64,000 bases of DNA from contig JAULZW010000007.1 in the NCBI GenBank assembly GCA_032117235.1, forward strand, positions 4,091 through 68,090, read 5' to 3'. Numbering within the stretch: the first letter of the stretch is position 1; the number at the start of each line of letters is the position of its first letter. Source of the DNA: Minisyncoccota bacterium (GTDB lineage: Bacteria; Patescibacteriota; Minisyncoccia; SW-4-49-11). The translations under genes and the position numbers were made by a program. Positions 1,773 to 21,696 of the stretch are shown in pieces. The notes beneath the pieces were generated by a model, which was not told where the DNA came from, made no database searches, and saw only the letters and a list, made by a program, of their open reading frames with translations.

Positions 1773-1777
1773 ACTAA

Positions 1778-2254: not shown

Positions 2255-2256
2255 AT

Positions 2257-3078: not shown

Positions 3079-3121
3079 AAATACTAAACTAAAATTTATA
3101 TTTAATTCCAGTGAATTTGAT

Positions 3122-3151
3122 AGATAAGAGAAAATTAATTCTCTCTTATCT
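3122..3151 (-). terminator. Perfect 10-bp inverted repeat (AGATAAGAGA / TCTCTTATCT, 9-10 nt loop) immediately 3' of the major pilin gene. Candidate partial terminator or mRNA-stabilising hairpin.
   Basis: Read directly from the sequence. There is no clean U-tract after it, so it may be an attenuating or stabilising hairpin rather than a full terminator. Confidence 0.35.
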
Positions 3152-3168
3152 ACACAAAGTAACTTGAA

Positions 3169-3630
3169 TTATGGACAAGCTGTTAGTGACGAGTTAACTA
3201 TTGCCTCACCTGTAGCAAGAGTTATAAATCTTGTTGTTCCTGTACTATCTGCACAATACCAGTCAAGTTCATTAGTAGTGTTTCTAGTTCTAACTGCCAT
3301 AACCCAGAATCCAACACCACTATTACCTCTTATAGGAGTAGCTGCATCACCAGTACCCAGAGTTTCTCCATTAGTGGTAAGAGTAGTACGAAGTTGACCA
3401 ATTCTACCGGCAGTGGCAGATAGAGGGTTGAGATACTTATTAGTATTTAATGTATATCCGTCTAATTCCATAATGGATCTAAGAGAGGATAGAGCTGATT
3501 GCACAGAAGCTGCTCTACCACGACTTCTAGCACTATTTACATTTACTAATACTACTGAGGCTAAGATACCAATAATGGCAATTACCACAAGTAATTCAAT
3601 CAATGTAAATCCTTTTTGTAATTTTTTCAT
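3169..3630 (-). CDS. pilA: Major type IV pilin (PilA-like). N-terminus MKKLQKGFTLIELLVVIAIIGILA, C-terminal Cys pair.
   Basis: Canonical prepilin leader. 153 aa with C...C near the C-terminus (disulfide loop). Strong SD AAAGGAGGTG 7 nt upstream and a TATAAT -10 at 3687..3682 suggest a dedicated promoter and high expression. Confidence 0.75.
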   Translation of the reverse strand: MKKLQKGFTLIELLVVIAIIGILASVVLVNVNSARSRGRAASVQSALSSLRSIMELDGYTLNTNKYLNPLSATAGRIGQLRTTLTTNGETLGTGDAATPIRGNSGVGFWVMAVRTRNTTNELDWYCADSTGTTRFITLATGEAIVNSSLTACP

Positions 3631-3689
3631 TTTTTCACACCTCCTTTCTTTATCATATATTTACATTTATTTAATATCTTGATTATATT

Positions 3690-4907
3690 TTAGAATGCTC
3701 CAGCGATATTGTAAATAGGCATTAAAACTGCTAATACAAATATACCGACCCCGACTCCAAGTCCTACTATCATCACTGGTTCTACTAAAACTGTTAGGTT
3801 AGCGACAAGATTATCCACTTCTTGTTTATAGAATCTAGTTAAAGTTTGTAAAACCAAAATAGTTTTTCCTGTTTTCTCTCCTACCGAGATAATCTGAGAG
3901 GCAATATATGGAAATTCCGGGTATTTCATCAAAGTATCAGACAATTGCCCACCACCTTTCACACTCTCAATAGCTTCTAGAATTATTTTTTCAAAAACAG
4001 AATTTCCTACTATTTTAGAGTTTATTTCTAAAGATTGCAGTAATGGAACTCCAGCTCTTAATAAATTACTTAAATTGGTAGCAAATCTAGCTATGTATAA
4101 TTTAGTAAATAATTGTCCAAATATGGGTAGTCTAAGTTGCCATTTATCTACAAATTTCTTACCAAATTCTGTTTTTGTAAAATATACTATACCTGCTACT
4201 ATACCTATAATTCCTATAAGAACTGGAAATATATGTTTTTGTAACAAATTTGAGCCTGAAATTAGAATTTGAGTCATCCATGGTAATTCCTGATCAGAAC
4301 CAGTACTTTCTAAAACCTCAACTAAGTCAGGTAAGACAAAATAGGCTATCCCTAAAGATAAAACTACAAAAATTAGCAGCACAAATACAGGGTAAGATAA
4401 TGCTCCTTTAATTTTATTATTCAAATCATATTGTTCTTCTAGATAATCAGCCATATACAGCAAAGATTCTTGCAACCCTCCAGAAGCTTCTCCCGATCTA
4501 ATTATAGATACGAATAAGTTATCAAATACTTTTGGATTTTTTGCCATAGCATCTGATAACAAAGTACCATCTTGTAATTCTAACACTAATTTATCTAAAA
4601 TTTGTTTGAAATATTTATTTCTATTATTTTGATCTCTTAATACACTTACTGCTTCTATCAAAGGAATTTGCACTTCTAAAAACACAGCTAGAATCCTAGT
4701 AAATACTACCAATTCTCTGGATGATACTTTGTTAAATATTTCTAAGTCTTTCCCAAACAAAGATTGTTTATTAATATCTTGTAGCGAGATTACAATCAAA
4801 TCTTTACTTTGTAGTGCAGTTAGGGCTGAGTCTTCGGTTGAAGCATCAACTACACCTTGTTTGAGTATATTATCTTTAGTTTTTGCTAAATATTTAAATT
4901 TTGCCAT
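3690..4907 (-). CDS. pilC: Type IV pilus platform protein PilC (GspF family).
   Basis: 405 aa with three TM segments and two GspF-type cytoplasmic repeats. Lies between pilT and the pilin. Confidence 0.85.
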   Translation of the reverse strand: MAKFKYLAKTKDNILKQGVVDASTEDSALTALQSKDLIVISLQDINKQSLFGKDLEIFNKVSSRELVVFTRILAVFLEVQIPLIEAVSVLRDQNNRNKYFKQILDKLVLELQDGTLLSDAMAKNPKVFDNLFVSIIRSGEASGGLQESLLYMADYLEEQYDLNNKIKGALSYPVFVLLIFVVLSLGIAYFVLPDLVEVLESTGSDQELPWMTQILISGSNLLQKHIFPVLIGIIGIVAGIVYFTKTEFGKKFVDKWQLRLPIFGQLFTKLYIARFATNLSNLLRAGVPLLQSLEINSKIVGNSVFEKIILEAIESVKGGGQLSDTLMKYPEFPYIASQIISVGEKTGKTILVLQTLTRFYKQEVDNLVANLTVLVEPVMIVGLGVGVGIFVLAVLMPIYNIAGAF

Positions 4908-4916
4908 AAATTTTTG

Positions 4917-5987
4917 TTATGTTGCTGATCTTTTGAGCATACTTCTTAAACTAACTGGGTCTGGAGAGTATAAAAGCGCAGTCTCATAAGAAACTATACC
5001 TCGTACAATTAAATCAAATAATGATACATTCATAGAAATCATCCCTTCTTTTCTATGAGTTTCAATAACTGTATCTAACTGGTAAATACGATTTTCGCGG
5101 ATTAAACTCTTTACAGCATTATTAACTAACAATATTTCTAGAGCTGGGGTTAATTCACCATTAACAGTAGGAATTAATCTTTGAGAAACAACTGCTTGCA
5201 GAGAATTAGCGATTTGAGACCTAACCTGTCCTTGCTGATAAGTTTGGAAAGTATCTATAATTCTATCTATAGATTGAGTTGCACTATTGGTATGAAGGGT
5301 TGAAAAAACTAAATGTCCAGTTTCAGCAGCCGTTACTGCCACCTTCATAGTATCTAAATCTCTCATTTCACCCAATAAAATAACATCAATATCTTGCCTA
5401 AATGAAGCCTCAAGAGCATTACTAAAACTTTTTGTATCATATCCTATTTCTCTTTGAGTAATAATACTTTTATCTGGTTTATATACAAACTCAATAGGAT
5501 CTTCTATAGTAACAATTTTTACATCTCTAGTATGATTAATTTCATTTATAACCGAAGCCAATGTTGTGGATTTACCAGATCCTGTAGGTCCAGTAACTAA
5601 CACAAATCCTTGCATTAATTGAGAAAATTGATGTATAACTGCAGGTAAACCTAATTGCTCAAAAGTAAGTATATCTGAGGGTAAATATCTCATTACTAAA
5701 TTCGGATATCCCTGAGCAATAAAAGCATTTACACGAAATCTAGAGGTAGGCTCATTGAATGTATATGCAAAATCTTGCTCTTGCCCACTATACAAATCGT
5801 CAATCTTATCTTGAGATAACATAGAGCTAAGCAATTCATTGATAGAATCCTTGGTTAAAATATCCTCCTCTATAGTTATTAATCTATTTTTAATTCTCAA
5901 TATTGGCTTACTACCTGTTGTCAAGTGAATATCAGAACCTTTAGCGTTAACAATTTGATTAATTATAGATGATAAATTGATTTGCAT
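4917..5987 (-). CDS. pilT: Twitching-motility / pilus retraction ATPase PilT.
   Basis: 356 aa. Walker A GPTGSGKSTT, Asp box and His box of PilT/GspE ATPases. No N-terminal GspE-N domain. Confidence 0.85.
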   Translation of the reverse strand: MQINLSSIINQIVNAKGSDIHLTTGSKPILRIKNRLITIEEDILTKDSINELLSSMLSQDKIDDLYSGQEQDFAYTFNEPTSRFRVNAFIAQGYPNLVMRYLPSDILTFEQLGLPAVIHQFSQLMQGFVLVTGPTGSGKSTTLASVINEINHTRDVKIVTIEDPIEFVYKPDKSIITQREIGYDTKSFSNALEASFRQDIDVILLGEMRDLDTMKVAVTAAETGHLVFSTLHTNSATQSIDRIIDTFQTYQQGQVRSQIANSLQAVVSQRLIPTVNGELTPALEILLVNNAVKSLIRENRIYQLDTVIETHRKEGMISMNVSLFDLIVRGIVSYETALLYSPDPVSLRSMLKRSAT

Positions 5988-6002
5988 ATATATATTTATA
6001 TT

Positions 6003-6377
6003 TTAATTTTGAGGTAAATACTTTTGTATAGTGCGCAAAACTTCAGTTGGAGTATAATTAGATTTGACCATATAGTCTAAGGCCCCTAACTCAAAAGCCT
6101 GATTAATATCAGCTTGTGAAGACAAATTACTAAGAACTATAACTGGGATATCTTTAAACTTATCTTCCTTCTTCAACCATTTTAATATATCAAATCCACT
6201 AATGTTAGGCAGGACTAAATCTAGCAATATCAAATTTATATTATTCTTATCCAAAATAAACTTTAATTCATCTTTATTAAGTGCAGTAAATACATTTGTG
6301 TTTATTTCTTCTATTTTATTAGAATACATCTGCTTAATAAAGGGATCGTCTTCTATTAGTAGTATGTTATATTTCAT
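6003..6377 (-). CDS. Single-domain response regulator (CheY-like receiver) embedded in the pilus operon (PilH/PilG-like).
   Basis: 124 aa. Acidic pocket EDD near the N-terminus, phospho-acceptor Asp in LILLDLVLP, and a conserved Lys downstream. Confidence 0.75.
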   Translation of the reverse strand: MKYNILLIEDDPFIKQMYSNKIEEINTNVFTALNKDELKFILDKNNINLILLDLVLPNISGFDILKWLKKEDKFKDIPVIVLSNLSSQADINQAFELGALDYMVKSNYTPTEVLRTIQKYLPQN

Positions 6378-6434
6378 GATTTATATATTTATATACTGTA
6401 TTGTGTATATTATATTATAGTTTTTTAATCTTGT

Positions 6435-8150
6435 CTATACTTCTACCATTGTCAATAACTCTGTTAATGATAAATATCCCATTAACACTTTCAGTATTCC
6501 ATCTTGCTTTAAAGTAACATAGTTATTAGTCTTGAGATGATTTATTATATCGTCTACTCCAGTATTTTGTCCAATTATTTCTCTTAATTCTTCTGTCACA
6601 GATAAAACCTCAAAAATAGCCATTCTACCCTTAAATCCATTCGTGCATTTGGGACAGCCTACAGGTTTATAGCCCTTATCAAAATTACCTGAGTATACGC
6701 TTTGGATATATTCAGCATCGAGAGTATTTAGAGAATCTTTAATATATTTTTGTTCCTGTTCAGAAAAAGTGATTTCTTGTTTACACTCTGGGCAGAGTGT
6801 TCTAGATAGTCTCTGAGCTATTACAACTTGCAAAGAAGCTGATAATAAGAAAGGTTCTACTCCCATATCGGTCAATCTAGGGATAGCTCCTGGAGCATCA
6901 TTAGTATGCAATGTTGAGAACACAATATGTCCAGTCAAAGCTGATTGCACGGCTAATCCAGCTGTTTCACCGTCTCTAATTTCTCCCACCATAATAACAT
7001 CCGGATCTTGCCTCAAAATAGATCTCAATCCAGTGGCGAATGTATAGTTAATATCTGGCCTGACTTGCGACTGATTAATTCCAGCTAAATAATATTCTAT
7101 TGGGTCTTCTAAAGTTACTATATTGATATCTTCTGTATTAACCTGAGCTAATAAAGTATAAACTGTAGTTGATTTACCAGATCCAGTAGGACCAGTTAAT
7201 AATATCATACCAAATGGCTTATTAATGGCATCCCGAACTATTTCTGCTTTTGGACCTATGTATCCTAGTGATTCTAATGTCCTTACACCACCTGATGTGT
7301 CTAAAATTCTAAGTACTATTTTTTCCCCATAGTTTGTGGGGAAGGTGGAGACTCTAAAGTCTATTTTTTTATCTTGCTCTATGATGGAAAATCTACCGTC
7401 TTGAGGCTTTCTCTGTTCATCAATTTTTAAATTAGATAATATTTTGATACGGGCTACAATTGCAGGATATAAAACCTTTGGCAATACGAGGCTAGTATAT
7501 AGAACACCATCTACTCTAAATCTAACTCTAACGGAATCCTCTGAACCTTCAATATGTATATCTGATGCATCACCCGTTACAGCTGTTTTTACAATAACAG
7601 ATACTATTTTTATAATTGGAGCAGTTTCTAAGTTTTCTTTATTAACATCTGAAATATCAGGAAGCTCCTTAGTTTCCTCATTTTTTTCTTCAAATTCTTG
7701 AACATTATCTTTCACCGCATTAGTTAATGTATCAAAATCTTTTAATAGATTGGTAATATCATTTTCTGTTGCTACAAATAATTCAAATTTTAAATATTTT
7801 TCTTGAAAAATAAATTTTATAGCTTGAATTGCATTATAGCTATCTGGATCTGAAATAGCTACTGAAATTAAATTATTATCTTTAGCAAAAGGTACTAAAT
7901 TATATTTTCTCATTATAGTAATAGGTAGAATTTCGTACAATTCTTTATCAACTTCATATTCTGATAAGTCAATATAGCTTAATCCCCAAAACTCTGCATT
8001 TATTTTTAATAACTGTTTTTCAGTAAAATTACTAGAAAGAAATTGCTTAATATCATCTTCTGATAAAGAATCAAAATTTGCTATGTCCTTAAATTTTTCG
8101 GGAAATTCTATTTTTAGAGATTCAAATGTTTTTCTTAAATCAAATTGCAT
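6435..8150 (-). CDS. pilB: Type IV pilus assembly ATPase PilB (GspE family).
   Basis: 571 aa. N-terminal GspE-N-like domain, Walker A GPTGSGKSTT, tetracysteine Zn motif CPEC...CPKC. Confidence 0.9.
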   Translation of the reverse strand: MQFDLRKTFESLKIEFPEKFKDIANFDSLSEDDIKQFLSSNFTEKQLLKINAEFWGLSYIDLSEYEVDKELYEILPITIMRKYNLVPFAKDNNLISVAISDPDSYNAIQAIKFIFQEKYLKFELFVATENDITNLLKDFDTLTNAVKDNVQEFEEKNEETKELPDISDVNKENLETAPIIKIVSVIVKTAVTGDASDIHIEGSEDSVRVRFRVDGVLYTSLVLPKVLYPAIVARIKILSNLKIDEQRKPQDGRFSIIEQDKKIDFRVSTFPTNYGEKIVLRILDTSGGVRTLESLGYIGPKAEIVRDAINKPFGMILLTGPTGSGKSTTVYTLLAQVNTEDINIVTLEDPIEYYLAGINQSQVRPDINYTFATGLRSILRQDPDVIMVGEIRDGETAGLAVQSALTGHIVFSTLHTNDAPGAIPRLTDMGVEPFLLSASLQVVIAQRLSRTLCPECKQEITFSEQEQKYIKDSLNTLDAEYIQSVYSGNFDKGYKPVGCPKCTNGFKGRMAIFEVLSVTEELREIIGQNTGVDDIINHLKTNNYVTLKQDGILKVLMGYLSLTELLTMVEV

Positions 8151-8328
8151 ATTTTGTGAATTTATTTAAAGAAATTTTTGATTACAGTAATATTATCTTC
8201 TATTTCAACTTTTTTATTCATAGAATTTAAAATTGGATTTATAATACCATATCCAAAATATAACATAATAATTATGCTTAATATAATTGTTATTGTTGTT
8301 GTGTTTATATTATACTTAAGTTTATTTT

Positions 8329-8901
8329 TCATAATGTTACATAATATGTTTTTACTCTTATTGAAGAGTTAGATTTTTGAGAAAAACCATCTACATCTAA
8401 GTTCGTGGTACCACTCACACTTTGAATATCAATATACTGTTTAGAATCAGCTAATTTAGATAGAAATGAATCTACGGAACTCTTATTACCACTAATAGCC
8501 ATATTGATGTCAATGATTTTTAATTTATTCGATTTTTCAGCACCTCCTAAAATTTCACTTGTATCTAAGTTTTCATCTTCGACATTGGATGTAGGAGCAG
8601 ATTTTTTTGTATCACCTAATTCAATACTTAAGCTAGATATGTTTACACCTGATTCTTGAGTAAAAGAATCTATTAAGTTAATTAGCTTATTCTTATCATA
8701 TTTATCTAGAACAAATTCATTACTAGATTTATACAATTTTTCTGGATTATTATCATTAAAAGCTTGTTTAAGTAGCAACTCTTTTTTCAATTTATCAATA
8801 CTTTCTAAGTCAGCAGACAGCATTGGTAGTAAATTTGAATTTACTAACCAAATTGCTATTAAAAAGATAATTATTGACAAAAGCTTAATTTGATTTGACA
8901 T
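8329..8901 (-). CDS. PilO-like pilus assembly protein (N-terminal TM anchor, periplasmic domain).
   Basis: 190 aa with a single N-terminal TM and a predicted coiled coil. Positioned between pilN-like and pilB as in pilMNO operons. Assigned by synteny and topology only. Confidence 0.4.
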   Translation of the reverse strand: MSNQIKLLSIIIFLIAIWLVNSNLLPMLSADLESIDKLKKELLLKQAFNDNNPEKLYKSSNEFVLDKYDKNKLINLIDSFTQESGVNISSLSIELGDTKKSAPTSNVEDENLDTSEILGGAEKSNKLKIIDINMAISGNKSSVDSFLSKLADSKQYIDIQSVSGTTNLDVDGFSQKSNSSIRVKTYYVTL

Positions 8902-8902
8902 A

Positions 8903-9430
8903 TTATTTTAATTTTATTTGTACATTAAAAGAAACTTTACCACCATCATCAGAATTTAAGGTAGAGAAAGTTACATTACTTATTAAAGGCAAGGCTTTAA
9001 ATGAGTCAATTTGTTTAGTTGTACTCATAAAGGATGGTGTTGACATAGCCATACTTATTTCTTTATTAACTTTATCATATGAAAACTGAGAAACGACAGC
9101 TCCTGGGATATAAGCTGACTCTATAGATTTAATAGCCGCTATTGAATCATAAGAATTATTTATTAAATCAGCAATATTAAATAAACCTTGATCTAAGTCA
9201 GTAGTTATGTAATAACTACTATTGGCATTGTCTAATTTTTCTATATCTTGAGTTATTTTAGCTTTCTCCTGAACAACAAAAAACCAATAAACAAATCCTA
9301 CTATACCAATATATACCAAAAAGAAACCTCCTAGTATATATATTAAAGTATTATCTTTACTTTTAGAGTTTAATTCGTCTAATTGCTCAAGATTTCTTTG
9401 ATTTTTGGGAATGAATTTAATAGTATCCAT
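8903..9430 (-). CDS. PilN-like pilus assembly protein.
   Basis: 175 aa with one TM (IYILGGFFLVYIGIVGFVYWFFVV) about 30 aa from the N-terminus, directly downstream of pilM. Assigned by synteny and topology. Confidence 0.45.
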   Translation of the reverse strand: MDTIKFIPKNQRNLEQLDELNSKSKDNTLIYILGGFFLVYIGIVGFVYWFFVVQEKAKITQDIEKLDNANSSYYITTDLDQGLFNIADLINNSYDSIAAIKSIESAYIPGAVVSQFSYDKVNKEISMAMSTPSFMSTTKQIDSFKALPLISNVTFSTLNSDDGGKVSFNVQIKLK

Positions 9431-9431
9431 A

Positions 9432-10499
9432 CTATTCTATATATTTTTTTAATGCCACACCTATTGACAATATTAAATCCTGCCAAATATCTACCTTCAA
9501 GTCATCATTATCAAGTCCTTTTACACTCAAGTTAGAGATTGGGGATGCAATAGAAATATTCATATTTGTATTATTAAATTGATTTTTGAATATAGAACCT
9601 ATATAATCTCTAACTCCTGTCATCTTAGATGTCCCCCCCAATATAACAACACTATTAATATCAATGTCCATTATCTCTTTCACATTTCCCAATAGTCGAA
9701 TCACATCTTTGACTATAAAAGAATTTATTTTTGACTGAATAAGCTCAGCTATTTTAGGATCTTTATTATTTACTCCATTTTCTTTTTTCAAATTTTCAGC
9801 TTCTAAAATAGAACAACCCCTCATCTGTTTTATGGATTCAGTAATTTGATTTCCCCCAAAATCAAATGATTGGATAGTTTGCAATTTCTTATAAGCATCG
9901 ACAACTATAACCGTACTATTCCTAGCACCTATATCAATAAGACAAGTATTCTCTTTAGGCAAATCAATAGATCTCAAAATTGAGAAACAATCTAATTCAA
10001 AACCCTTTACTTTAATATTTAAAGCCTTAGTTACTTCAAGATATCTATTAGCTACTGTATTAGGTACAGCTATTATCAAAATATTATACTGATCTTGAAG
10101 TTTATTCTTGCCCAGATTAATCCAATCCAATTGAACACTACTAAGTGGAACTGGAATATGCTTTTTAGCTTCCAAAGGAACTGCTGATAAAAACTCCTTC
10201 TCTTCTAATATAGGTACTTGTATAATTGCAAATAAAGCTAAATATGATGGCAGAGCTATATAAGCATTTGACATACGCATACCTGATCTTGCAGTCATAG
10301 CCTTAATTATGTCAGTTATTTTTTGAGGAGCGAGAGCCACATCGCTATCTTTTTGCTGTATTACACTATCAAGATCATCATCCCATATACTATAGTTATC
10401 AATAGAAAAGTTGTTAAGGTTATGACTAACTTCAACAATTTTTATAGTTTGAGTTCCTATATCTATCCCAAAAGATTTATTTTGTCCCAATGTAAACAT
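9432..10499 (-). CDS. pilM: Type IV pilus assembly protein PilM (actin-like ATPase fold).
   Basis: 355 aa. N-terminal FGIDIGTQTIKIV phosphate-1 motif of the FtsA/PilM actin fold. First gene of the operon. Confidence 0.75.
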   Translation of the reverse strand: MFTLGQNKSFGIDIGTQTIKIVEVSHNLNNFSIDNYSIWDDDLDSVIQQKDSDVALAPQKITDIIKAMTARSGMRMSNAYIALPSYLALFAIIQVPILEEKEFLSAVPLEAKKHIPVPLSSVQLDWINLGKNKLQDQYNILIIAVPNTVANRYLEVTKALNIKVKGFELDCFSILRSIDLPKENTCLIDIGARNSTVIVVDAYKKLQTIQSFDFGGNQITESIKQMRGCSILEAENLKKENGVNNKDPKIAELIQSKINSFIVKDVIRLLGNVKEIMDIDINSVVILGGTSKMTGVRDYIGSIFKNQFNNTNMNISIASPISNLSVKGLDNDDLKVDIWQDLILSIGVALKKYIE

Positions 10500-16427: not shown

Positions 16428-17636
16428 TCAATATCTTAAAGCCGTATTAACCTGTATCCCAGCTCCACGATATTGACTAGAGTCTCTATAATACACATTC
16501 TCTACAGCCTTAACTATATTATTCCAAGAATAGTGATACTTTATTTCACCCTGTAACATCTCAGATAATTCTAATGCCCCTTTATAGTCACATAACAAAT
16601 TATCCAATTGATGCTTCAGGGAAATTACATTATTAACTCTGGCAACATGTGCTAAATCTCCCACAACCTCTATATTTTCCCTTATATCTGAAACTATAAT
16701 TGGGACACCATAACTACCTGCTTCTAATAATGAAATAGACAACCCTTCCGAAGAGGATGGTAAAACATAAACCGCTGCATTAGCAAATAATTGTTTCAGA
16801 GTTCTACCTGATTGATGACCCGTAAAAATAATATTTTTATCATTATTAGCTAAATTATGTAAATACTTTTCATATTCAGGAGTAAAAGCTCCAGAGCCTA
16901 CAATCACTAGTTTTTTATTATACTTACGAGTCATCTGCTGATAAGCTTGAATCAAAATATGAGCATTTTTATGCTTAACTAGCCTTGCAATAAAAACAAT
17001 ATACCCCCTCTTCTTCAACCCAAATTGAGCCAATTCAGAATCAGAAGTAATATGATTAAAATCTGTACCATTAGGAATATAGGTTGTTTTAATATCAAAT
17101 TCTTTATTAACAAAATACCTAAGACTTTTAGACACCGTAATCACCTCATCAGCAAAATTACAACCCATCCAAGCACCTAGCTTGAGCATAGACTTAGCAA
17201 AAAGATTCCATTTCCCATGATACCAATCCGCACTATGAAAGGTAAATGCAACTTTAGTATATTTGCCACCCAAAATATACTTCAGACCAAACCCAATTCT
17301 AGCAAAAAGAGTAAAAAAAGCAGGTCCAACCGAATTAATATGCAAAACATCCAAGTCAGGAATAAAAAAACTATGCCAAATAGAAGTAAGGGTATGAGTT
17401 CCCGCATCTAGACTTTTAGTAGGAATAGAAGACGTAGCAATAACCTCCACTCCTTTATAATTACCTTCTGGAGCATAAGCTTTACGGGTATACACAATAA
17501 TATCATGACCCCGCCGAGCAAGTCTTACTGCAATATGCTCAACATAATTCTCAACCCCTCCACCAGAAGTTGCAGGTATACCTTTTTGCCCAACAAAAGC
17601 AATTTTCATGACTTGCAAAAATTTAACTATAGTCAT
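16428..17636 (-). CDS. Glycosyltransferase family 4 (GT-B fold).
   Basis: 402 aa. C-terminal EGLSISLLEAGSYGVPIIVSD (the E-X7-E-like region of GT4 retaining transferases). Confidence 0.8.
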   Translation of the reverse strand: MTIVKFLQVMKIAFVGQKGIPATSGGGVENYVEHIAVRLARRGHDIIVYTRKAYAPEGNYKGVEVIATSSIPTKSLDAGTHTLTSIWHSFFIPDLDVLHINSVGPAFFTLFARIGFGLKYILGGKYTKVAFTFHSADWYHGKWNLFAKSMLKLGAWMGCNFADEVITVSKSLRYFVNKEFDIKTTYIPNGTDFNHITSDSELAQFGLKKRGYIVFIARLVKHKNAHILIQAYQQMTRKYNKKLVIVGSGAFTPEYEKYLHNLANNDKNIIFTGHQSGRTLKQLFANAAVYVLPSSSEGLSISLLEAGSYGVPIIVSDIRENIEVVGDLAHVARVNNVISLKHQLDNLLCDYKGALELSEMLQGEIKYHYSWNNIVKAVENVYYRDSSQYRGAGIQVNTALRY

Positions 17637-17736
17637 AAACCGTCATAATTTATGATACCATAAAAATCTATTTTTGTCAAAAAATTATAGCAATCACAAG
17701 TCTATAAAAACGACTCCCCCTGACGACTTAGCGTAA

Positions 17737-17747
17737 GGGGGGGGGGG
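17737..17747. repeat. G11 homopolymer (followed by AGG) just inside the left edge of the GC-rich island. A C5 run lies 17 nt upstream.
   Basis: Read directly. C5...G11 could pair as a hairpin. Long poly-G is also a known two-colour Illumina artefact and a slipped-strand hotspot. Confidence 0.9.
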
Positions 17748-17837
17748 AGGGACAAAAGTGGTATTCAGTTTTTAGTATTTAGTTTTTCAGACTAACTCCC
17801 GGCCTCCAAGGGGGAGTGTATGTGCTTAGTATAGACT

Positions 17838-18413
17838 TTAACTGTAAGTCTCTTCTCCTCTCAAAATGGCTAGTGCTTTGGGCATCATATGGGGTTCATA
17901 GACCCTAATAACTGCTAAAGGTGAAAGGAATCTCCGCTCAATCGTTGCTCCTAACCTATAATCACTACTATCATCAACCCTCTTCCAAGCTAGGTCAGAT
18001 ACGAACAACATAAAGCTTTTGTTGTTCCACTGCTGTTCCATAGTAGGATCAGTAGCAGGAGCTGAAGTATATTTAGTTGTGTGGATAGTAGTTGTGTGGA
18101 TAGAGTTTTTTGTACTGCTATCGTAGGGAACGGGTGTTGATGCCAGAACGGGCGCTGGAGCGGTGGCAACTGATGCAGGCGCTGGAGCGGTGGCAACTGG
18201 TGCCGGTGCTGGAGCGGTGGCAACTGGTGCCGGTGCTGAGGCTGGTATTAGCTCAGATTGTAAAATCCCTTGCCTCTGTCGAGAGCTTTGGATCATACTT
18301 TGAATATCTAACACATCTGCTTTCACAGAAGAGTGGACTTCACTCGCAGCTACAGGAGCTGCAAAGAGCAGGACTGCCGTTGTAAACAGCCCTATAAGAA
18401 ATCGGTTTCTCAT
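17838..18413 (-). CDS. Small secreted protein with a Pro/Ala-rich tandem repeat (APAPVAT units). Foreign GC-rich codon usage. The likely true start is the ATG at 18413, not the TTG at 18494.
   Basis: Signal peptide MRNRFLIGLFTTAVLLFAAPVAASEV begins at an internal ATG preceded by GAGGT. The track's TTG start is the TTGACA -35 hexamer of the promoter. The N-terminal half is about 60% GC. Confidence 0.5.
   Translation of the reverse strand: MRNRFLIGLFTTAVLLFAAPVAASEVHSSVKADVLDIQSMIQSSRQRQGILQSELIPASAPAPVATAPAPAPVATAPAPASVATAPAPVLASTPVPYDSSTKNSIHTTTIHTTKYTSAPATDPTMEQQWNNKSFMLFVSDLAWKRVDDSSDYRLGATIERRFLSPLAVIRVYEPHMMPKALAILRGEETYS
18140..18240. repeat. Tandem 27-nt repeat, about 3.5 copies (CTGGAGCGGTGGCAACTGRTGCMGGYG), encoding APAPVAT/APAPAPVAT/APAPASVAT on the minus strand.
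   Basis: Read directly. Units differ at 2-3 positions. Confidence 0.6.
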
Positions 18414-18465
18414 TGAAACCTCAATAGGACTAATGGACGGCAGCCGACATACTGCCTTGTGGTGA

Positions 18466-18494
18466 TTTATAACATATTTTGTAACTTTTGTCAA
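18466..18494 (-). promoter_or_regulatory. Sigma70-type promoter TTGACA-N17-TATAAA for the 17838..18413 gene.
   Basis: Minus-strand read: TTGACAaaagttacaaaatatgtTATAAA, with the ATG about 50 nt downstream. Confidence 0.4.
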
Positions 18495-18561
18495 TAAATT
18501 ACAAAGATATTTATGTTTTATAAAAAAATAAACTCCTATATTAGGTTATAGTAGTTAGGTA

Positions 18562-18594
18562 TAAAAAAACCACCCTCAACTCTGTGCTGAGGGC
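18562..18594 (-). terminator. Rho-independent terminator after the 18608..19237 gene: CCCTCA-N9-TGAGGG stem followed by a U7 run on the minus strand.
   Basis: Read directly. Minus strand reads CCCTCAGCACAGAGTTGAGGGtggTTTTTTTAT. Confidence 0.5.
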
Positions 18595-18607
18595 GTGATG
18601 TGATGGA

Positions 18608-19237
18608 TCAGTTGTTTTTAGTAAGGAGGCTTGTGGCTTCCTCGTATCTCCCCTGATTAGCAGCTTGGTCGGCTGCTGCGAGGTTGGGATGATGATTGCC
18701 GGCCCGCTTTCTAGCCTTTCTATAGGCATCCTGAGCTTCCTCAGAAGCCGCAAAGCCTTTAAAAGATTCCCTACGTAAAACCTCTCGAGTTTTCAGTGCC
18801 CAATCAAGCTCTTTTTCGCGAAGGAGCTGACTATTAAGGGCTTCACACGAGATGATCGTGTCAGCTCTTACTGAATCGAGGTGGCGGCTAAACTCTTCTT
18901 CTGGAAGGTTTGGCTGAACTGTCGTACTATTCAAGCCTCCGCTCACCCCAGTTCCGAAGAGGGAGAAGGCTGCAGAACCCCCAGTGGAGTTGATATTAGC
19001 AGCCTTGCTCACCACAAGGCGAGATTTAAGGACAACAATCTGTCCGTTGTAGAGGCAGGGGAAGCTGTCCTCCCTCTCAAAACTAGACCTCCCCTCTTGG
19101 CCAGGAGCACCCGGAAATCCGGGCGCAATGGCAGGTGATACTGGGGCTCTATATTCCCAAGCTTTCGCTGGGAGAATAGCCCCAGCCCCAATGACAAAAG
19201 TGGCTAAATACAGCTGAAATCGAGTTAGATTTCTCAT
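18608..19237 (-). CDS. Secreted hypothetical protein (209 aa, signal peptide MRNLTRFQLYLATFVIGAGAILPAKA). Foreign GC-rich codon usage.
   Basis: ORF with a clear Sec signal and AXA cleavage site. About 55-58% GC with C-ending codons against a genome of about 30%. The upstream leader is CU-rich with no SD. Confidence 0.5.
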   Translation of the reverse strand: MRNLTRFQLYLATFVIGAGAILPAKAWEYRAPVSPAIAPGFPGAPGQEGRSSFEREDSFPCLYNGQIVVLKSRLVVSKAANINSTGGSAAFSLFGTGVSGGLNSTTVQPNLPEEEFSRHLDSVRADTIISCEALNSQLLREKELDWALKTREVLRRESFKGFAASEEAQDAYRKARKRAGNHHPNLAAADQAANQGRYEEATSLLTKNN

Positions 19238-19277
19238 GAGAGGACGACGAGGAGATATGGTTTTGAGGGCTAAAGGG

Positions 19278-19336
19278 ACTCTTTAGCACCTTTTAATATA
19301 TATCTACACTGAATATACTAAAAGGTGCTAAAGAGT
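19278..19336. repeat. Perfect 18-bp inverted repeat (ACTCTTTAGCACCTTTTA ... TAAAAGGTGCTAAAGAGT) with a 23-nt loop, in the AT-rich spacer between two island genes.
   Basis: Verified base by base (19278-19295 against 19319-19336). It lies inside the predicted 5' leader of the 18608..19237 gene. A T-run follows on the plus strand. Confidence 0.6.
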
Positions 19337-19422
19337 ATTTTTATCAAAAACCTATCTCTATAAAGATTTAATTATAAATGAGCATCAAATTGGTATAAAT
19401 TATGAATTAATACCATAGGCGG

Positions 19423-19451
19423 AATATAACACAAAATTTTAATTCTGTCAA
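19423..19451 (-). promoter_or_regulatory. Candidate sigma70 promoter TTGACA-N17-TATATT, about 180 nt upstream of the 18608..19237 start.
   Basis: Minus-strand read: TTGACAgaattaaaattttgtgtTATATT. The implied long leader contains the 18-bp hairpin. Confidence 0.35.
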
Positions 19452-19499
19452 ATCATAACAACATCATTGTTATATATTTATAAGTAAAAGAGCCCGCTC

Positions 19500-19531
19500 A
19501 TACATGGGTATGAACGGGCGGGTAAGGTGCT
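19500..19531 (-). terminator. Rho-independent terminator after the 19545..19970 gene (GCCCGTTCAT-N8-ATGAGCGGGC, then TCTTTTACTT).
   Basis: Read directly. 10-bp stem with one mismatch and a U-rich tail. Confidence 0.45.
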
Positions 19532-19544
19532 GAGCAACGAGGGC

Positions 19545-19970
19545 TCAGTGAAGAGAACCACAAGGAGCAGGTGCGTGGTGAACAGGCACGTTGCCCACCA
19601 GGGGTGGGCGTGACCGTTGACCCTGCTGGGAGCAGGTGGCGGGCTGAAGCCGAAGTTGCGTTCCAGCACCAACAAGCAAAACAGGATATCCGGTCTCCGG
19701 TTCAATGAACCGGGTGGCCCCAGGGAAGTTGATGTGGTTGTTGTTGGTCCACAGATCAGGACCGACCTCAACTCCTGCTGTCACCCGGCAACCGTTGTTG
19801 ACGCGGCAATAATGCTGCGCGGCGGATATCGATACGTAGGTTCTGGCCGTCGAGTTGAGAGGCCCCACAGCTACCCGGGGGTAGATTGCCTGAGCCCTGG
19901 CGGGGACGATGGTGGCGGAAGCCACCAGAACGCCGGTGATGATGGCATTGAACTTGGAACGTTTATTCAT
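19545..19970 (-). CDS. Small secreted Cys-containing hypothetical protein (141 aa, signal peptide MNKRSKFNAIITGVLVASATIVPARAQA). Foreign GC-rich codon usage.
   Basis: Sec signal with AXA site, 4 Cys in the mature part. Third codon positions are strongly C/G (atC acC gcC ttC...). Confidence 0.5.
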   Translation of the reverse strand: MNKRSKFNAIITGVLVASATIVPARAQAIYPRVAVGPLNSTARTYVSISAAQHYCRVNNGCRVTAGVEVGPDLWTNNNHINFPGATRFIEPETGYPVLLVGAGTQLRLQPATCSQQGQRSRPPLVGNVPVHHAPAPCGSLH

Positions 19971-19996
19971 GGCATTGCCACGAGGTTTACGAAAAC

Positions 19997-20025
19997 ACTA
20001 TAGCATATTTTATACATTTTGTCAA
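19997..20025 (-). promoter_or_regulatory. Near-consensus sigma70 promoter TTGACA-N17-TATAGT for the 19545..19970 gene.
   Basis: Minus-strand read: TTGACAaaatgtataaaatatgcTATAGT, 26 nt upstream of the ATG. Confidence 0.45.
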
Positions 20026-20036
20026 GAGTAAAGAGC

Positions 20037-20066
20037 AAAAAAAATACCGGCCCTCGAGAGAACCGG
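20037..20066 (-). terminator. Rho-independent terminator after the 20087..20614 gene (ACCGG-N12-CCGGT, then AUUUUUUUU).
   Basis: Read directly. Minus strand reads ACCGGttctctcgagggCCGGTATTTTTTTT. Confidence 0.5.
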
Positions 20067-20086
20067 TTTGAGAATATTGTTGACAC

Positions 20087-20614
20087 CTAGTTACACAGAA
20101 ACCTTACACGCCCATTGTCATATATACATCCACCTCTTCTATGCCAAGTTGGGGCGGGATGTCTCTCATAATTAGAAGGAGATCTGTTACCCCATGTATG
20201 ATTCGAGTAATTTATGAATATATGTGTTCTAGTACTTTCATTAAAGCCTCTATACCCATCACAGTGGCCTAAAATTTGTATAACTAAAGAACAAATATCA
20301 GAATATGGTCTAATTCCTGTTCTTATTATAATACCATTGTACTCAATCTTTTCTAGCCTGGGTTGATTATCATAGTAATTCTGATTATTCCCACTCCTAT
20401 AATGGTAATTTCTTCTATTTATTTCTCTACAATAGTTATTTTCTGGGCTACACCAATTTCCTTGTTGCCAATAACCATCGTTGGCAAGAACCGGAGCTGA
20501 TGGAATAATCCAAAATGACACTGCGAGACAAATGGATTTCAGAGAAGAAAGTTTCATTGGGGTTAATTCCCTAGAGAACAACTTCACCATAGCATAAATA
20601 GCAATATTTAGCAA
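20087..20614 (-). CDS. Small secreted Asn/Tyr/Arg/Cys-rich hypothetical protein with native AT-rich codon usage. Possible start at the internal Met (MKLSSLKSICLAVSFWIIPSAPVLA).
   Basis: ORF with a signal peptide. Low-complexity N/Y/R-rich mature region with 6 Cys. Confidence 0.45.
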   Translation of the reverse strand: MLNIAIYAMVKLFSRELTPMKLSSLKSICLAVSFWIIPSAPVLANDGYWQQGNWCSPENNYCREINRRNYHYRSGNNQNYYDNQPRLEKIEYNGIIIRTGIRPYSDICSLVIQILGHCDGYRGFNESTRTHIFINYSNHTWGNRSPSNYERHPAPTWHRRGGCIYDNGRVRFLCN

Positions 20615-20625
20615 TAGCTGTATTA

Positions 20626-21696
20626 TTATATTGTATCTAAAGCTTTATCTAAGCTAATTTTATAGCTATGATTTTGTATGTAATTTTGTATATTAGATTT
20701 TATAAACTCAACATCCTGGCTATTTAAGTTTATTATCTGTTTATCTAATTCTGAATTGATATTTTCTAATATTATACCTAGATTATAATCTTGTATATCT
20801 CTGCTCATACTATGATTATCAGTGGTTATAACTGGTAAGTTTAAGCTTAAATAGTCTTTGATCTTCCCTGGATCAGCGCATAGTATTTCTGGAGTATTCT
20901 CATATAGGGCTAGCCCATAGCTTATTTGATTTTTACTAATTATATCTATTGTCTCTTGCTCGGTCTGGAACCCGTATAGAGTGATATTATTGACCTGTGA
21001 GTCTAGAATTAATTGTTGTATTTCAGCATACAAATTTCCCTGCCCTATCAAATGCAAATGATAATCGGCGGGTAATTTAGCAAAAGTTTTGACTAATAAT
21101 CTCAGATTATGTCCTTCTTTAAAATTACCCATAAATAGAAACTGCTTTGGATTCGGCTCATATTCTGGCAAATTTTTAGATTTTATACCTAAGGGAACTG
21201 TAAATACTTGTACTCTATTCAAGTTTTTGTTCTGATGCTCCTGTATAATCTGCTTATTGACTGCCCAGACTATATCTGCTCTTATATAAGCTAATTTTTC
21301 TATTCTGTTTATTAAATATCTTGAAGAGAATATATTATTATAAAAATAATAATCATAAGCATAATAAATAATTTTAGCCTTTGGATAATATCTCTTCAGC
21401 GAGAGAGCGATTGAAGCCTCTAGCCAATCTATGGCTAAAATATAATCATAATCTGTATCAAATTGCTTAGAATTTAATAAAATTTTCTTAACTTTATTAT
21501 AATGCCCCCAATAATAAGAAAGTTTAGACTTATATACAGAGATATCTATATTACCTGTATGAGTGGAATAATAGTTTTGGGGATATTGGAGAGAAGGAAA
21601 AAGGAGATAATGCACTGTATGTCCTAAATCCTGAAAACCTTTAATAATATCCTCTGATTTAGCTATATACTGGCGACCCAATACTAAAGTTTTCAT
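20626..21696 (-). CDS. Glycosyltransferase (GT-B fold, GT1/GT4-like).
   Basis: 356 aa. The C-terminal half has the Rossmann-like GT-B pattern FLFMGNF...LHLIGQG...LPVITTD. Confidence 0.6.
   Translation of the reverse strand: MKTLVLGRQYIAKSEDIIKGFQDLGHTVHYLLFPSLQYPQNYYSTHTGNIDISVYKSKLSYYWGHYNKVKKILLNSKQFDTDYDYILAIDWLEASIALSLKRYYPKAKIIYYAYDYYFYNNIFSSRYLINRIEKLAYIRADIVWAVNKQIIQEHQNKNLNRVQVFTVPLGIKSKNLPEYEPNPKQFLFMGNFKEGHNLRLLVKTFAKLPADYHLHLIGQGNLYAEIQQLILDSQVNNITLYGFQTEQETIDIISKNQISYGLALYENTPEILCADPGKIKDYLSLNLPVITTDNHSMSRDIQDYNLGIILENINSELDKQIINLNSQDVEFIKSNIQNYIQNHSYKISLDKALDTI

Follow-up and report, generated by a model that had tools for sequence, protein, structure and literature searches.

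A probable native, hypervariable expression locus of GC-rich secreted-protein genes in an AT-rich freshwater Paceibacteria genome

Why does the AT-rich, small genome of a freshwater member of the Paceibacteria (CPR) carry GC-rich genes for exported proteins among its surface-glycan genes, and were these genes recently acquired, as the initial annotation proposed? The window (the 64-kb stretch of DNA analyzed here) has 31% GC overall, with a 400-bp background of 30.8% ± 3.5% and a peak of 43% outside the locus. Sliding-window analysis confirmed the compositional deviation, with z values of 5 to 8.3 for island windows. These data cover 64 kb, and further GC-rich genes may be present elsewhere in the genome. 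The three open reading frames reported previously (17838 to 18413, 18608 to 19237, and 19545 to 19970; here S1, S2, and S3) have exactly these coordinates, to which we add that all lie on the minus strand. The GC content of 55 to 65% attributed to them holds for S3 (58.9%) but not for S1 (47.2%) and S2 (51.0%). Their spacers had been described as AT-rich, which is correct for the cores (25 to 33% GC) but not for entire spacers (33 to 39%), because the terminator hairpins within them are GC-rich. The GC3 values of S1, S2, and S3 are 0.37, 0.46, and 0.62, compared with 0.14 to 0.26 in all 56 other genes, including those encoding ribosomal proteins. Codons ending in G and those ending in C are both elevated, and the encoded proteins have more Ala, Pro, and Arg and less Ile and Lys. 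A fourth secreted-protein gene, S4 (20087 to 20557, minus strand), was overlooked previously; it is part of the block and is close to native composition (36% GC, GC3 of 0.29).

The locus extends from 17.65 to 20.6 kb and consists of units S4, S3, S2, and S1. GT4-family glycosyltransferase genes flank the block on both sides, and beyond them lie genes for Wzy_C and Wzz proteins on one side and for a DUF4012 protein on the other. The Wzy_C match adjoining the locus has an E value of 2e-19, with GT4, GT, and Wzz genes also adjacent, although in NCBIfam the same protein gives only a weak match, to RfaL. The earlier placement of these genes between glycosyltransferase genes of a cell-envelope glycan cluster, in a small-genome bacterium, is thus borne out by the flanking genes and the taxonomy.

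All four products pass a crude signal-peptide test (n-, h-, and c-regions plus positions -3/-1), with sites VAA/SE in S1, AKA/WE in S2, ARA/QA in S3, and PVLA/NDG in S4. All 34 island proteins from relatives also passed this test (38 of 38 including the window), compared with 14 of 56 background proteins. Searches with S1 to S4 against Pfam, NCBIfam, PHROGs, PADLOC, and PDB sequences gave no family match, and S1 returned only low-complexity matches to its Ala/Pro linker from the PDB. No fold or solved-structure match was found for the island proteins, and AlphaFold models were poor (pLDDT of 61.5 and, for S3, an uninformative 43.5). Searches of phages, plasmids, viral contigs, and GTDB genomes turned up no homologues beyond this group of AT-rich genomes, and the 1.84 billion representative proteins searched yielded only 7 clusters of the S2 family. 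All four are orphan proteins with predicted Sec export, which agrees with the initial annotation of three small exported proteins with Sec signal peptides and no recognizable family.

The block reads as four monocistronic units, each with its own predicted sigma-70-type promoter and intrinsic terminator, and S3, S2, and S1 have extended -10 elements; all features given below are on the minus strand. S4 encodes a protein of 156 amino acids with seven Cys residues. Its putative promoter (TTGCTA-17-TGc-TATGGT, 20586 to 20614) is a weak one from our own reading that scores 8/12, under the threshold of the promoter scan, and its terminator was predicted by scan at 20046 to 20067 (9-bp stem, then a T-run). 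Homologues occupy the same slot in L003, L008, L009, L011, L012, L014 to L016, and L018, and S4 is the most widely kept gene of the locus and the sole remaining island gene in L013. S3 is preceded by a promoter scoring 11/12 (TTGACA-17-TATAGT with the extended -10 TG, 19997 to 20025) and followed by a scan-predicted terminator at 19492 to 19519 (12-bp stem, then a T-run). Its product of 141 amino acids has four Cys residues and a conserved core, YPRVAVGPLNS..SISAAQ.YCR..GCRVTAGVE..LW; relatives include P0002 (63% identity) and syntenic genes in L003, L008, L015, L016, and L019.

The units of S2 and S1 also carry conserved 5' leaders. The promoter scan places the S2 promoter module, GATGTTGTTA-N4-TTGACA-17-TATATT with an extended -10, at 19423 to 19465. 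Its upstream element plus -35 (GATGTTGTTA-N4-TTGACA) occurs once in the window, compared with 0.07 copies expected, and once in each related locus, invariably within the island. The conserved leader of ~180 nt (19238 to 19422) contains a conserved hairpin of ~24 bp at roughly 19265 to 19335, has a folding z of -8.4, and is 77 to 89% identical to those of L003 and L008, compared with 66 to 69% for the coding sequence (CDS). Compensatory changes were looked for in this hairpin and none were seen, and the leader has no match in Rfam. S2 encodes 209 amino acids with a conserved VSPAIAPGFPGAPGQEG motif, two invariant Cys residues, and a C-terminal helical hairpin (...HPKLAAAD..GRYEEA..LL), and its scan-predicted terminator lies at 18571 to 18595 (10-bp stem, then a T-run).

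For S1, we read a promoter, TTGACA-17-TGt-TATAAA (18466 to 18494), with almost no variation across L003, L019, and the distant L022. Folding and conservation identify a 5'-untranslated-region stem-loop, GGCAG-N8-CTGCC (18439 to 18456), which is invariant across every S1-bearing locus, L020 and L022 included, and may be an mRNA-stabilizing 5' hairpin. The protein of 191 amino acids consists of a helix, a linker rich in Ala, Pro, Ser, and Thr that varies in length, and a conserved C-terminal domain (DEAWRR.D..DYRLGA..ER...APH.LP.ALAILRGE..Y). The linker repeats (27 nt, 3.3 copies, 18151 to 18238; 15 nt, 2.3 copies, 18074 to 18107) are in frame, which supports S1 as a coding gene, and the N terminus is homologous to proteins of 358 to 395 amino acids in the same slot of other relatives (hhalign, 92.5%). 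A probable terminator (CTCCCCC...GGGGGAG plus a T-run, 17714 to 17749) was found by our own reading and is absent from the scan output because its loop is too long. It holds a C11 homopolymer at 17737 to 17747, and its CCCCC/GGGGG style is shared by terminators of relatives. The edge of the locus is the extended -10 promoter of the downstream GT4 gene (16428 to 17636) at 17652 to 17680, which scores 11/12. A perfect -35 with a 17-nt spacer and TG occurs at five sites in 64 kb, preceding S3, GT4, S2, rpsP, and rplK. Judging from promoter quality alone, the island genes may be highly expressed.

A GC-rich block is found at the same site beside the same GT4 gene in ~12 independent assemblies or metagenome-assembled genomes (MAGs) (RecG 75 to 90% identical), and ENA, JGI, Logan, and NCBI assemblies repeatedly show the order Wzz-Wzy_C-GT-[small genes]-GT4-DUF4012-RecG. 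The GT-side junction is reproduced in an independent Logan assembly and the same layout in at least 10 other assemblies, which rules out an assembly artifact. Sharp composition steps, and one Logan contig that terminates within the S1 repeat, would fit GC-rich DNA of another organism joined onto a CPR contig during assembly or binning, but the probability of such a chimera is negligible, as different projects and samples have yielded independent assemblies with identical junctions and native AT-rich spacers interleave the GC-rich genes.

Blocks of 47 to 69% GC with AT-rich spacers occupy the site in nine of 10 RecG-anchored loci (10 GTDB species; MAGs of Paceibacteria/Parcubacteria/Minisyncoccia), L013 being the exception; the L017 contig stops at GT4, and its island region lies outside this sample. 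In ~240 kb from the 10 loci, the only genes with a GC of ≥0.42 are island genes. Deeper relatives (RecG 75 to 80%) still have an island GC3 of 0.5 to 0.7, and S2 has GC3 values of 0.46, 0.45, and 0.47 in three lineages with a pairwise dS of ~1. Among the window, L003, and L008, the dS of S2 (~0.9 to 1.1) equals that of the flanking GT and Wzy genes (0.6 to 1.3), in line with joint vertical inheritance. Conservation is higher in the AT-rich spacers than in the coding sequences. Between L003 and L019, flanking proteins are 93 to 94% identical (dS of 0.2 to 0.4) and spacers 88 to 98% identical, whereas S2 is just 50% identical (dS of 1.36) and the S3-like gene 38%. L009 has the closest RecG (89%) yet a different island gene set.

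We consider the 17.65- to 20.6-kb region to be, with somewhat better than even probability, a native, clade-conserved, hypervariable expression locus of this Paceibacteria lineage. The AT-rich spacers would be under strong purifying selection and could provide the homology arms that let related lineages swap divergent coding alleles and entire gene sets; with such exchange, the locus would resemble a variable locus of the surface-antigen or O-antigen type that is under diversifying selection. Its products may be abundant cell-surface or extracellular proteins, and an effector or adhesin role, as first suggested, is conceivable. The coding sequences have long kept their GC-richness, which is not a sign of decaying foreign DNA, because it persists among lineages that have reached saturation at synonymous sites. 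It may be kept up by selection that favors stable and highly structured mRNAs, in keeping with the S2 folding and covariation results below, together with a Gly/Ala/Arg/Pro-rich protein composition, and/or by GC-biased fixation when divergent alleles recombine. The near-native composition of S4 and the balanced polarized W>S and S>W counts in S1 and S2 weigh against this account, although parsimony is unreliable at such divergence. An odd GC composition is maintained lineage-wide at one fixed spot while gene versions appear to be swapped.

Recent horizontal acquisition of the island from an unrelated donor, the reading first proposed, has very little probability left. It would account for a composition that deviates at all three codon positions and in amino acid usage and for products that are orphans. 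However, the same genes, position, and GC-richness are present in relatives that are not one strain and whose flanks are as diverged as S2 itself. The initial annotation had looked to relatives carrying these genes with native codon usage for evidence against recent transfer, and that evidence is the stronger in that the genes are GC-rich there too. Recent acquisition is further contradicted by the conserved, native-type promoters in the spacers, by the scarcity of S2 clusters and the lack of outside homologues described above, and by the failure to find an integrase, tRNA, or att/direct repeats at the locus. A single transfer in the distant past, from a GC-rich donor lineage (perhaps diderm, host) to the ancestor of the clade, followed by slow amelioration or present selection, is unlikely but deserves more weight. 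GC1, GC2, and GC3 are all shifted, with a GARP-rich signature typical of GC-rich organisms; the gradient of GC3 among genes, from 0.29 to 0.62, could mean different ages; and the same slot in relatives holds an outer membrane protein beta-barrel-like protein ending in ...GF or ...FRF, which is odd for a presumed monoderm. Against this, donor homologues are not detectable in the databases searched, S2 GC3 is stationary across the three lineages and high GC3 is retained in the deeper relatives, GC-richness is confined to coding sequences, and, by a rough calculation, neutral decay (equilibrium GC3 of ~0.19) would have had to start from a GC3 of about 1 or more in the ancestor.

GC-biased gene conversion at a recombination hot spot, in which heteroduplex repair raises GC where alleles differ (coding sequences) and spares the spacers, is improbable as the explanation. 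The mosaic replacement of alleles amid conserved spacers and the incongruence of island type with RecG similarity are in its favor, and the joint shift of G- and C-ending codons and nonsynonymous positions, with ribosomal-protein genes that are not GC3-rich, is the expectation for a fixation bias rather than for translational selection. However, gene conversion effects reported in bacteria are a few percent GC3, too small for 20 to 40 points, and excess mRNA structure and compensatory changes in S2 would be left unexplained. Furthermore, S4 is as divergent as the other island genes and yet is not GC-rich; therefore, divergence or recombination alone fails to predict GC.

Structured RNAs often form GC-rich islands within AT-rich genomes, and the blocks could be noncoding RNA genes whose open reading frames are by-products of GC-richness; a separate promoter and terminator accompany each block. 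Folding z values relative to shuffles are -4.8 for S2, -2.7 for S1, -1.5 for S3, and -0.3 for S4, compared with +0.9 to -1.45 for six background genes, and five S2 orthologues range from -2.9 to -8.7. The S2 consensus fold (seven genes), ~16 short helices across the 630-nt CDS, has 34 compensatory pairs compared with 12.7 ± 4.5 in codon-column shuffles, a null that does not preserve clustering of conserved blocks and is applied to seven phylogenetically related sequences. With the alignment made by the tool itself, each of the five covariation measures is higher than in all 500 shuffles. The GT356 control has no excess, nor does S1 (12 pairs compared with 12.3), and values for the 270-amino-acid family (50 compared with 39 ± 4.5) and S3 (15 compared with 7.5 ± 4.6) are marginal, so that the excess is clear for S2 only. 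A purely noncoding role is nevertheless very unlikely: S2 has a dN/dS of 0.25 to 0.39 with most changes at third positions, island indels and repeats are multiples of 3, signal peptides, Cys residues, and motifs are conserved, and no Rfam match was obtained even at an E value of ≤1. A dual function, as mRNA with an additional RNA-level role, is conceivable. Dual-function or structure-rich mRNAs include RNAIII/hld and SgrS/SgrT; like these, S2 is a coding transcript with evidence of selected RNA secondary structure, but this structure is spread through the CDS and is predicted from sequence folding.

The Ala/Pro-rich linker of S1 may span the wall and may be O-glycosylated by the products of the adjacent GT4, GT, Wzy_C, and Wzz genes. 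PglL/TfpO-type O-oligosaccharyltransferases prefer Ala/Pro/Ser-rich acceptor regions. Apa of Mycobacterium tuberculosis is an Ala/Pro-rich secreted glycoprotein of a monoderm; S1 likewise combines a signal peptide with a downstream Ala/Pro-rich repeat linker but shows no sequence homology to Apa. Parallels are offered by PglL/TfpO-type Wzy_C O-oligosaccharyltransferases (PMC9829042) and by a monoderm adhesin gene beside its own glycosylation genes, cnm next to pgfS in Streptococcus mutans (PMC5856776), where, as here, a terminator separates the candidate substrate gene from the glycosyltransferase gene. S1, with its low-complexity linker, lies between genes for GT4-family transferases and for a membrane protein with a Wzy_C domain, whereas S2, S3, and S4 have no obvious acceptor tracts. 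Glycosylation here is putative, being read from the genes, and the Wzy_C protein could equally be a wall-polysaccharide polymerase or ligase.

The locus resembles a classical horizontally acquired genomic island in its deviant composition and codon usage and its exported orphan products, but it differs in lacking detectable mobility genes, direct repeats, and donor homologues, in its clade-wide occurrence at the same site with a flank dS of ~1 or more, and in a deviation restricted to coding sequences. Hypervariable surface loci with conserved flanks include O-antigen/capsule loci, flagellin or pilin variable regions, and SAR11 HVR2. As in these, a fixed slot, here among envelope-glycan genes, has conserved flanks and content that is divergent or replaced between close relatives and incongruent with core-gene similarity. 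Unlike in these, what varies is a set of small monocistronic genes for secreted proteins rather than sugar-pathway genes, and the most conserved parts are the internal intergenic spacers. Hypervariable surface islands usually have lower GC than their own genome, whereas the variable genes here are 15 to 30 points above it.

GC content per 1 kb is 24 to 36% across the window and rises to 38 to 49% at 17 to 20 kb alone. At a resolution of 200 to 400 bp, this rise separates into three blocks (z = 5 to 8 relative to a background of 400-bp windows with 30.8 ± 3.5% GC), and the limits of the blocks match exactly those of three minus-strand ORFs: S1 (positions 17838 to 18413; 47.2% GC), S2 (18608 to 19237; 51.0% GC), and S3 (19545 to 19970; 58.9% GC). 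The spacer cores between the blocks have 25 to 33% GC. The block includes a fourth gene of like architecture, S4 (20087 to 20557; 156 aa; 36% GC), although the initial annotation counted three genes and overlooked it. That observation was otherwise largely right: the ORFs and the composition scan bear it out, with the correction that its GC figures were overstated for S1 and S2 and understated for the spacers. GC3 is 0.37 in S1, 0.46 in S2, and 0.62 in S3 and lies between 0.14 and 0.26 in every other gene of the window, including the ribosomal-protein genes for L1, L10, L11, L7/L12, L25, and S16. G-ending and C-ending codons are alike raised in S1 to S3, and the encoded proteins are richer in Ala, Pro, and Arg and poorer in Ile and Lys. 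Thus, the island has the deviant base composition and codon usage of a genomic island (GC of 47 to 59% versus 31%; GC3 of 0.37 to 0.62 versus 0.14 to 0.26).

Comparison with homologues indicates that S1 to S4 are real genes. The dN/dS of S2 is 0.25 to 0.39, with most change at third positions, and the protein keeps invariant Cys residues, a conserved VSPAIAPGFPGAPGQEG motif, and a C-terminal helical hairpin. Homologues of S1 retain the signal peptide, an amphipathic helix, and the C-terminal domain and vary in the length of an Ala/Pro-rich linker; the DNA repeats of S1 have periods of 27 and 15 nt and are thus in frame. In S3, a core with Cys is conserved. All four proteins pass a heuristic signal-peptide test (n, h, and c regions plus the -3/-1 positions), which agrees with the earlier description of S1 to S3 as small secreted proteins and extends it to S4. 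The same heuristic is passed by 34 of 34 island proteins from relatives and by 14 of 56 background proteins of the window. After residue 40, the maximum KD-19 value is ≤1.17, which gives no further transmembrane segment, and there is no Cys at +1 that would mark a lipobox. S1 to S4 are therefore predicted by these heuristics to be exported in a Sec-dependent manner with a type I signal peptide.

Neither S1 to S4 nor the island proteins of relatives had matches above noise in Pfam, NCBIfam, PHROGs, or PADLOC. Sequence and profile searches of the PDB returned matches to the Ala/Pro linker or chance matches only, with no solved structure or fold matched, and the AlphaFold models were poor (that of S3, from two sequences, had a pLDDT of 43.5 and was unusable). 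No PADLOC defense model matches S1 to S4 or the four flanking genes. An Rfam search of 17400 to 20800 at E ≤ 1 gave no real match (only a chance isrG match at 15 bits), and two tRNAs were the only matches in the whole window at the gathering score. The adjacent GT4 gene (16428 to 17636) matches Pfam PF20706 “GT4-conflict” (38 bits, over the cutoff) beneath stronger generic GT4 matches; no PADLOC defense model was found for it.

Textbooks would attribute secreted orphan genes in a sharply bounded compositional island to recent horizontal gene transfer, and the initial annotation had accordingly proposed a recent foreign acquisition. This claim fails in the comparison with relatives that the annotation itself had suggested, as they hold the same genes, which are GC-rich there too. 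An independent Logan assembly, found by exact-sequence look-up, has the same GT-S4-S3-S2-S1 junctions and ends inside the S1 tandem repeat. On the contigs encoding the S2 homologues P0005, P0009, and P0012, the order is Wzz, Wzy_C, GT, two small genes, S2, S1, GT4, DUF4012, and RecG, and the island counterparts are likewise GC-rich. When one genome per GTDB species was scanned with RecG as the anchor (RecG identity of 75 to 89%), 10 MAGs labeled Paceibacteria, Parcubacteria, or Minisyncoccia were recovered, with two bearing a “Saccharibacteria” label; several are from lake and river samples. GC-rich genes are present at the slot in eight of the nine RecG-anchored loci that cover it (the contig of L017 stops at GT4, ahead of the slot, and is not counted) and, without exception, in those loci that were found by way of S1 or S2 and extend across the slot. 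In the RecG-anchored loci, these genes lie by GT4 with AT-rich spacers between them and reach 47 to 69% GC per 100 bp; across approximately 240 kb from ten loci, a GC content of ≥0.42 is seen in island genes only.

The exception among these loci is L013 (RecG 87% identical), in which one S4-family gene of 128 aa is all that separates GT4 from the next GT (L013:4671-5540), so that the locus exists there in a naturally near-empty form. The suggested check for sister genomes with GT4 and GT adjacent without the insert found only this one near-empty case, which retains an S4-type gene. The patchy presence expected of a genomic island, with the empty site being commonest, was not found. No flanking direct or att-like repeats, integrase, transposase, or adjacent tRNA was found at the island; the nearest tRNAs are at 12.9 and 29.2 kb, and the neighbors are GT, Wzy_C, and DUF4012 genes. 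GT4-family genes lie on both sides, in line with the glycosyltransferase flanks first described. A recent horizontal insert is ruled out by the same slot and the same GC-richness in diverged relatives, without signs of mobility or a donor. Together with the replicated junctions, this indicates that the island is a lineage feature and neither an assembly artifact nor a recent insertion.

Homologues of S2 number 11, with 45 to 72% identity (alignment A1), and the S2 profile finds seven clusters among 1.84 billion representative proteins. All of the profile members with retrieved DNA are on AT-rich contigs, and those of the distant members carry a GC-rich S2-S1 pair. Protein homologue searches gave only four relatives of S1 and one of S3. 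Scanning GTDB genomes with the S2 profile gave no relatives, which places S2-bearing lineages outside the GTDB species representatives, though their RecG relatives are within them. A metagenome pattern scan gave three true loci and a spurious one (L023). No homologues were found in a plausible donor lineage, and viral contigs, phages, and plasmids had no match to the island proteins. The literature on Patescibacteria/Parcubacteria yielded nothing relevant on GC-rich or hypervariable islands. The distant S2 relatives P0024 to P0026 end in ...PVRGLW or ...PVRALW, and a neighboring Gly-rich secreted protein (L022:7353-7808) ends in ...TQLQW; these C termini may represent a sorting or anchoring motif.

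Among the window and the related loci L003 and L008, the dS of S2 is 0.9 to 1.1 and cannot be distinguished from that of the flanking GT (0.6 to 0.9) and Wzy (0.7 to 1.3) genes; S2 has therefore codiverged with its flanks. The GC3 of S2 in these three lineages is 0.46, 0.45, and 0.47, respectively. By a rough estimate, neutral decay over a dS of ~1 with a genomic GC3 of ~0.19 would remove about two-thirds of the S2 GC3 excess, so that a stationary value of 0.46 under neutral decay would imply an impossible ancestral value. The GC3 of the island is still 0.5 to 0.7 in deeper relatives. These comparisons indicate that the GC-richness of the island coding sequences is maintained and not residual.

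Between L003 and L019, the flanking proteins are 93 to 94% identical (dS of 0.2 to 0.4) and the spacer DNA is 88 to 98% identical, whereas the S2 proteins are 50% identical (dS of 1.36) and the S3-like proteins are 38% identical. L009, whose RecG is nearest to that of the window, has another gene set at the slot. This mosaic of similar flanks and spacers with divergent coding sequences or different genes indicates that homologous recombination has replaced coding alleles and that its breakpoints lie in the conserved spacers. Signs of a diversity-generating retroelement target were not found: 15 to 24 kb contains no TR/VR-like direct repeat, and the divergence spans the whole coding sequence.

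The genes also appear to be transcribed independently. Promoter-like sites before S3 and S2 score 11 of 12 with an extended -10, and the predicted promoter of S1 was read by eye as TTGACA-17-TGtTATAAA. The combination of a perfect -35, a 17-nt spacer, and TG occurs at five sites in 64 kb, before GT4, S2, S3, rpsP, and rplK. A hairpin with a T-run follows each of S4, S3, and S2, and a CCCCC/GGGGG hairpin with a C11 tract follows S1. This homopolymer (17737 to 17747, minus strand, in the S1-GT4 spacer) is the 5′ arm of the terminator-like hairpin, and its length could vary by slippage or sequencing error.

The S2 promoter and 180-nt leader are 77 to 89% identical among loci, versus 66 to 69% for the coding sequence; the values for the S1 promoter and 5′ untranslated region (UTR) are 79 to 89%, with the distant L022 included, versus 58 to 59%. 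The S1 5′ UTR contains a hairpin, GGCAG-N8-CTGCC (18439 to 18456, minus strand), which is invariant in all S1-bearing loci, including L020 and L022, and is probably an mRNA-stabilizing 5′ hairpin. The S2 leader (19238 to 19422, minus strand; folding z = -8.4) contains a near-perfect hairpin of ~24 bp at 19265 to 19335, the 3′ arm of which is overlapped by a short alternative hairpin, GCTAAAGAGTCCCTTTAGC. This S2-leader hairpin has no Rfam match; it could act in the RNA, in regulation or processing, or else be a palindromic operator. A promoter-associated element, GATGTTGTTA-N4-TTGACA (19446 to 19465), occurs exactly once per locus and is island-internal in every case (compared in the window and in L001 to L005, L009, L011, L012, L014 to L016, L018, and L019). 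It precedes S2 in the subclade of the window and a GT4-adjacent gene for a 358- to 395-aa protein in the other subclade, and is a candidate activator or UP-element site. The 358- to 395-aa protein and S1 have an N-terminal module in common (hhalign, 92.5%). The locus thus looks like a series of expression slots that stay in place while the coding sequences in them are exchanged, and its conserved promoter and leader elements may serve as regulatory sites.

Coding sequences that stay 15 to 30 GC points above an AT-rich genome, in lineages saturated at synonymous sites, require an active force, for which RNA-structure selection, biased gene conversion, and protein-composition selection are candidates. 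The island is a compact natural test case, with S4, at native GC in the same locus, as an internal control. Translational selection was rejected because the GC3 of ribosomal-protein genes is 0.14 to 0.19 and because G- and C-ending codons both rise. Secretion itself was rejected as a cause because the pilins and M23 peptidase of the window have native GC3. Relative to dinucleotide shuffles, the folding z score is -4.8 for S2, -2.7 for S1, -1.5 for S3, and -0.3 for S4; it is +0.9 to -1.45 for six background genes and -2.9 to -8.7 for five S2 orthologues. The consensus fold of seven S2 genes, on a codon alignment, comprises 80 pairs, and compensatory changes occur in 34 of these, versus 32 ± 7 and 12.7 ± 4.5, respectively, in codon-column shuffles, with the structure being derived from the same alignment and the sequences being related. 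In the alignment made by the tool itself, all five covariation measures for S2 exceed 500 of 500 shuffles, and 85% of cells pair, versus 74% in shuffles and 39 to 52% when slid. A clear excess is confined to S2. The control gene GT356 has no excess, and Wzy has no excess of covariation.

The S2 mRNA thus appears to be structurally constrained, and a contribution to GC-richness from selection for structured, stable mRNAs is supported but unproven. GC-biased fixation during allele exchange is the second candidate; parsimony polarization of W>S versus S>W changes is balanced in S1 and S2, and the flanking controls show a saturation artifact. An ancient foreign origin is the third. These three explanations are not mutually exclusive.

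The glycan genes beside the island provide a context for its products. A gene at 21701 to 23095 matches Wzy_C (PF04932; E = 2.4e-19), with a Wzz-like gene nearby, and together with the GT4-family genes it matches the neighborhood expected of a Wzy_C-type O-OTase system, in which a Wzy_C-domain membrane protein is encoded near glycosyltransferases for lipid-linked glycans. The expected acceptor is Ser/Thr in an Ala/Pro-rich region of low complexity; as a potential region of this kind, S1 has the linker of variable length, and S2, S3, and S4 have no clear one. S1 is a plausible O-glycosylation substrate by analogy with cnm/pgfS (PMC5856776) and Wzy_C-type O-OTases (PMC9829042). The conserved slot between GT4, GT, Wzy_C, and Wzz, the signal peptides and Cys pairs, the S1 linker, the strong predicted promoters, the rapid evolution, and the allele exchange suggest that the proteins are abundant, are either exposed on the surface or released, and face hosts or phages. 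Both free-living and host-attached cells have been observed among freshwater Paceibacteria (PMC9166423).

At the GT4-adjacent slot, the secreted proteins of 358 to 395 aa are encoded on the minus strand at L012:13552-14691, L009:10059-11135, L015:15080-16243, L011:14308-15495, L014:15068-16252, and L018:14790-15920. They have an S1-like N terminus, a Pro-rich linker, and C-terminal alternating hydrophobic strands ending in ...GF or ...FRF, and they have no Pfam or PDB match. Their C-terminal domain resembles outer-membrane beta-barrels, which would be unexpected in CPR cells, as these are presumably monoderm.

Overall, we infer that this hypervariable locus for secreted proteins is specific to the lineage, that it is transcribed independently, and that its deviant composition is actively maintained; its mechanism and function are likewise inferential. 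Variable surface loci are a known kind; this one is unusual in that its GC excess persists, its internal spacers are conserved, and it has a structured coding sequence. As the island proves to be old and maintained in the comparative data, composition alone misleads in CPR genomes. This conserved set of exported proteins, which evolve fast, have strong predicted promoters, and are encoded beside envelope-glycan genes, is a concrete candidate for the surface or host-interaction repertoire of Paceibacteria, which have no known cultured representatives. It is conceivable, but in our view improbable, that the locus is a clade-wide expression site in which RNA-selected GC-rich transcripts encode interchangeable host- or phage-facing surface proteins. 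The transcripts would then be exceptionally structured, long-lived mRNAs or dual-function RNAs, and the OMP-like beta-barrel of sister lineages would be secreted and possibly inserted in the outer membrane of a diderm host. In that case, GC-richness that persists within an AT-rich genome would be the hallmark of a new class of genes constrained as both RNA and protein and would lead to host-interaction factors of Paceibacteria.

A type IV pilus cluster (1260 to 10499) also lies in the window, upstream of the RecG region. It encodes several pilins, a prepilin peptidase, PilB/PilT-like ATPases, PilC, and PilM; its composition is native, and such a cluster is ordinary in CPR.
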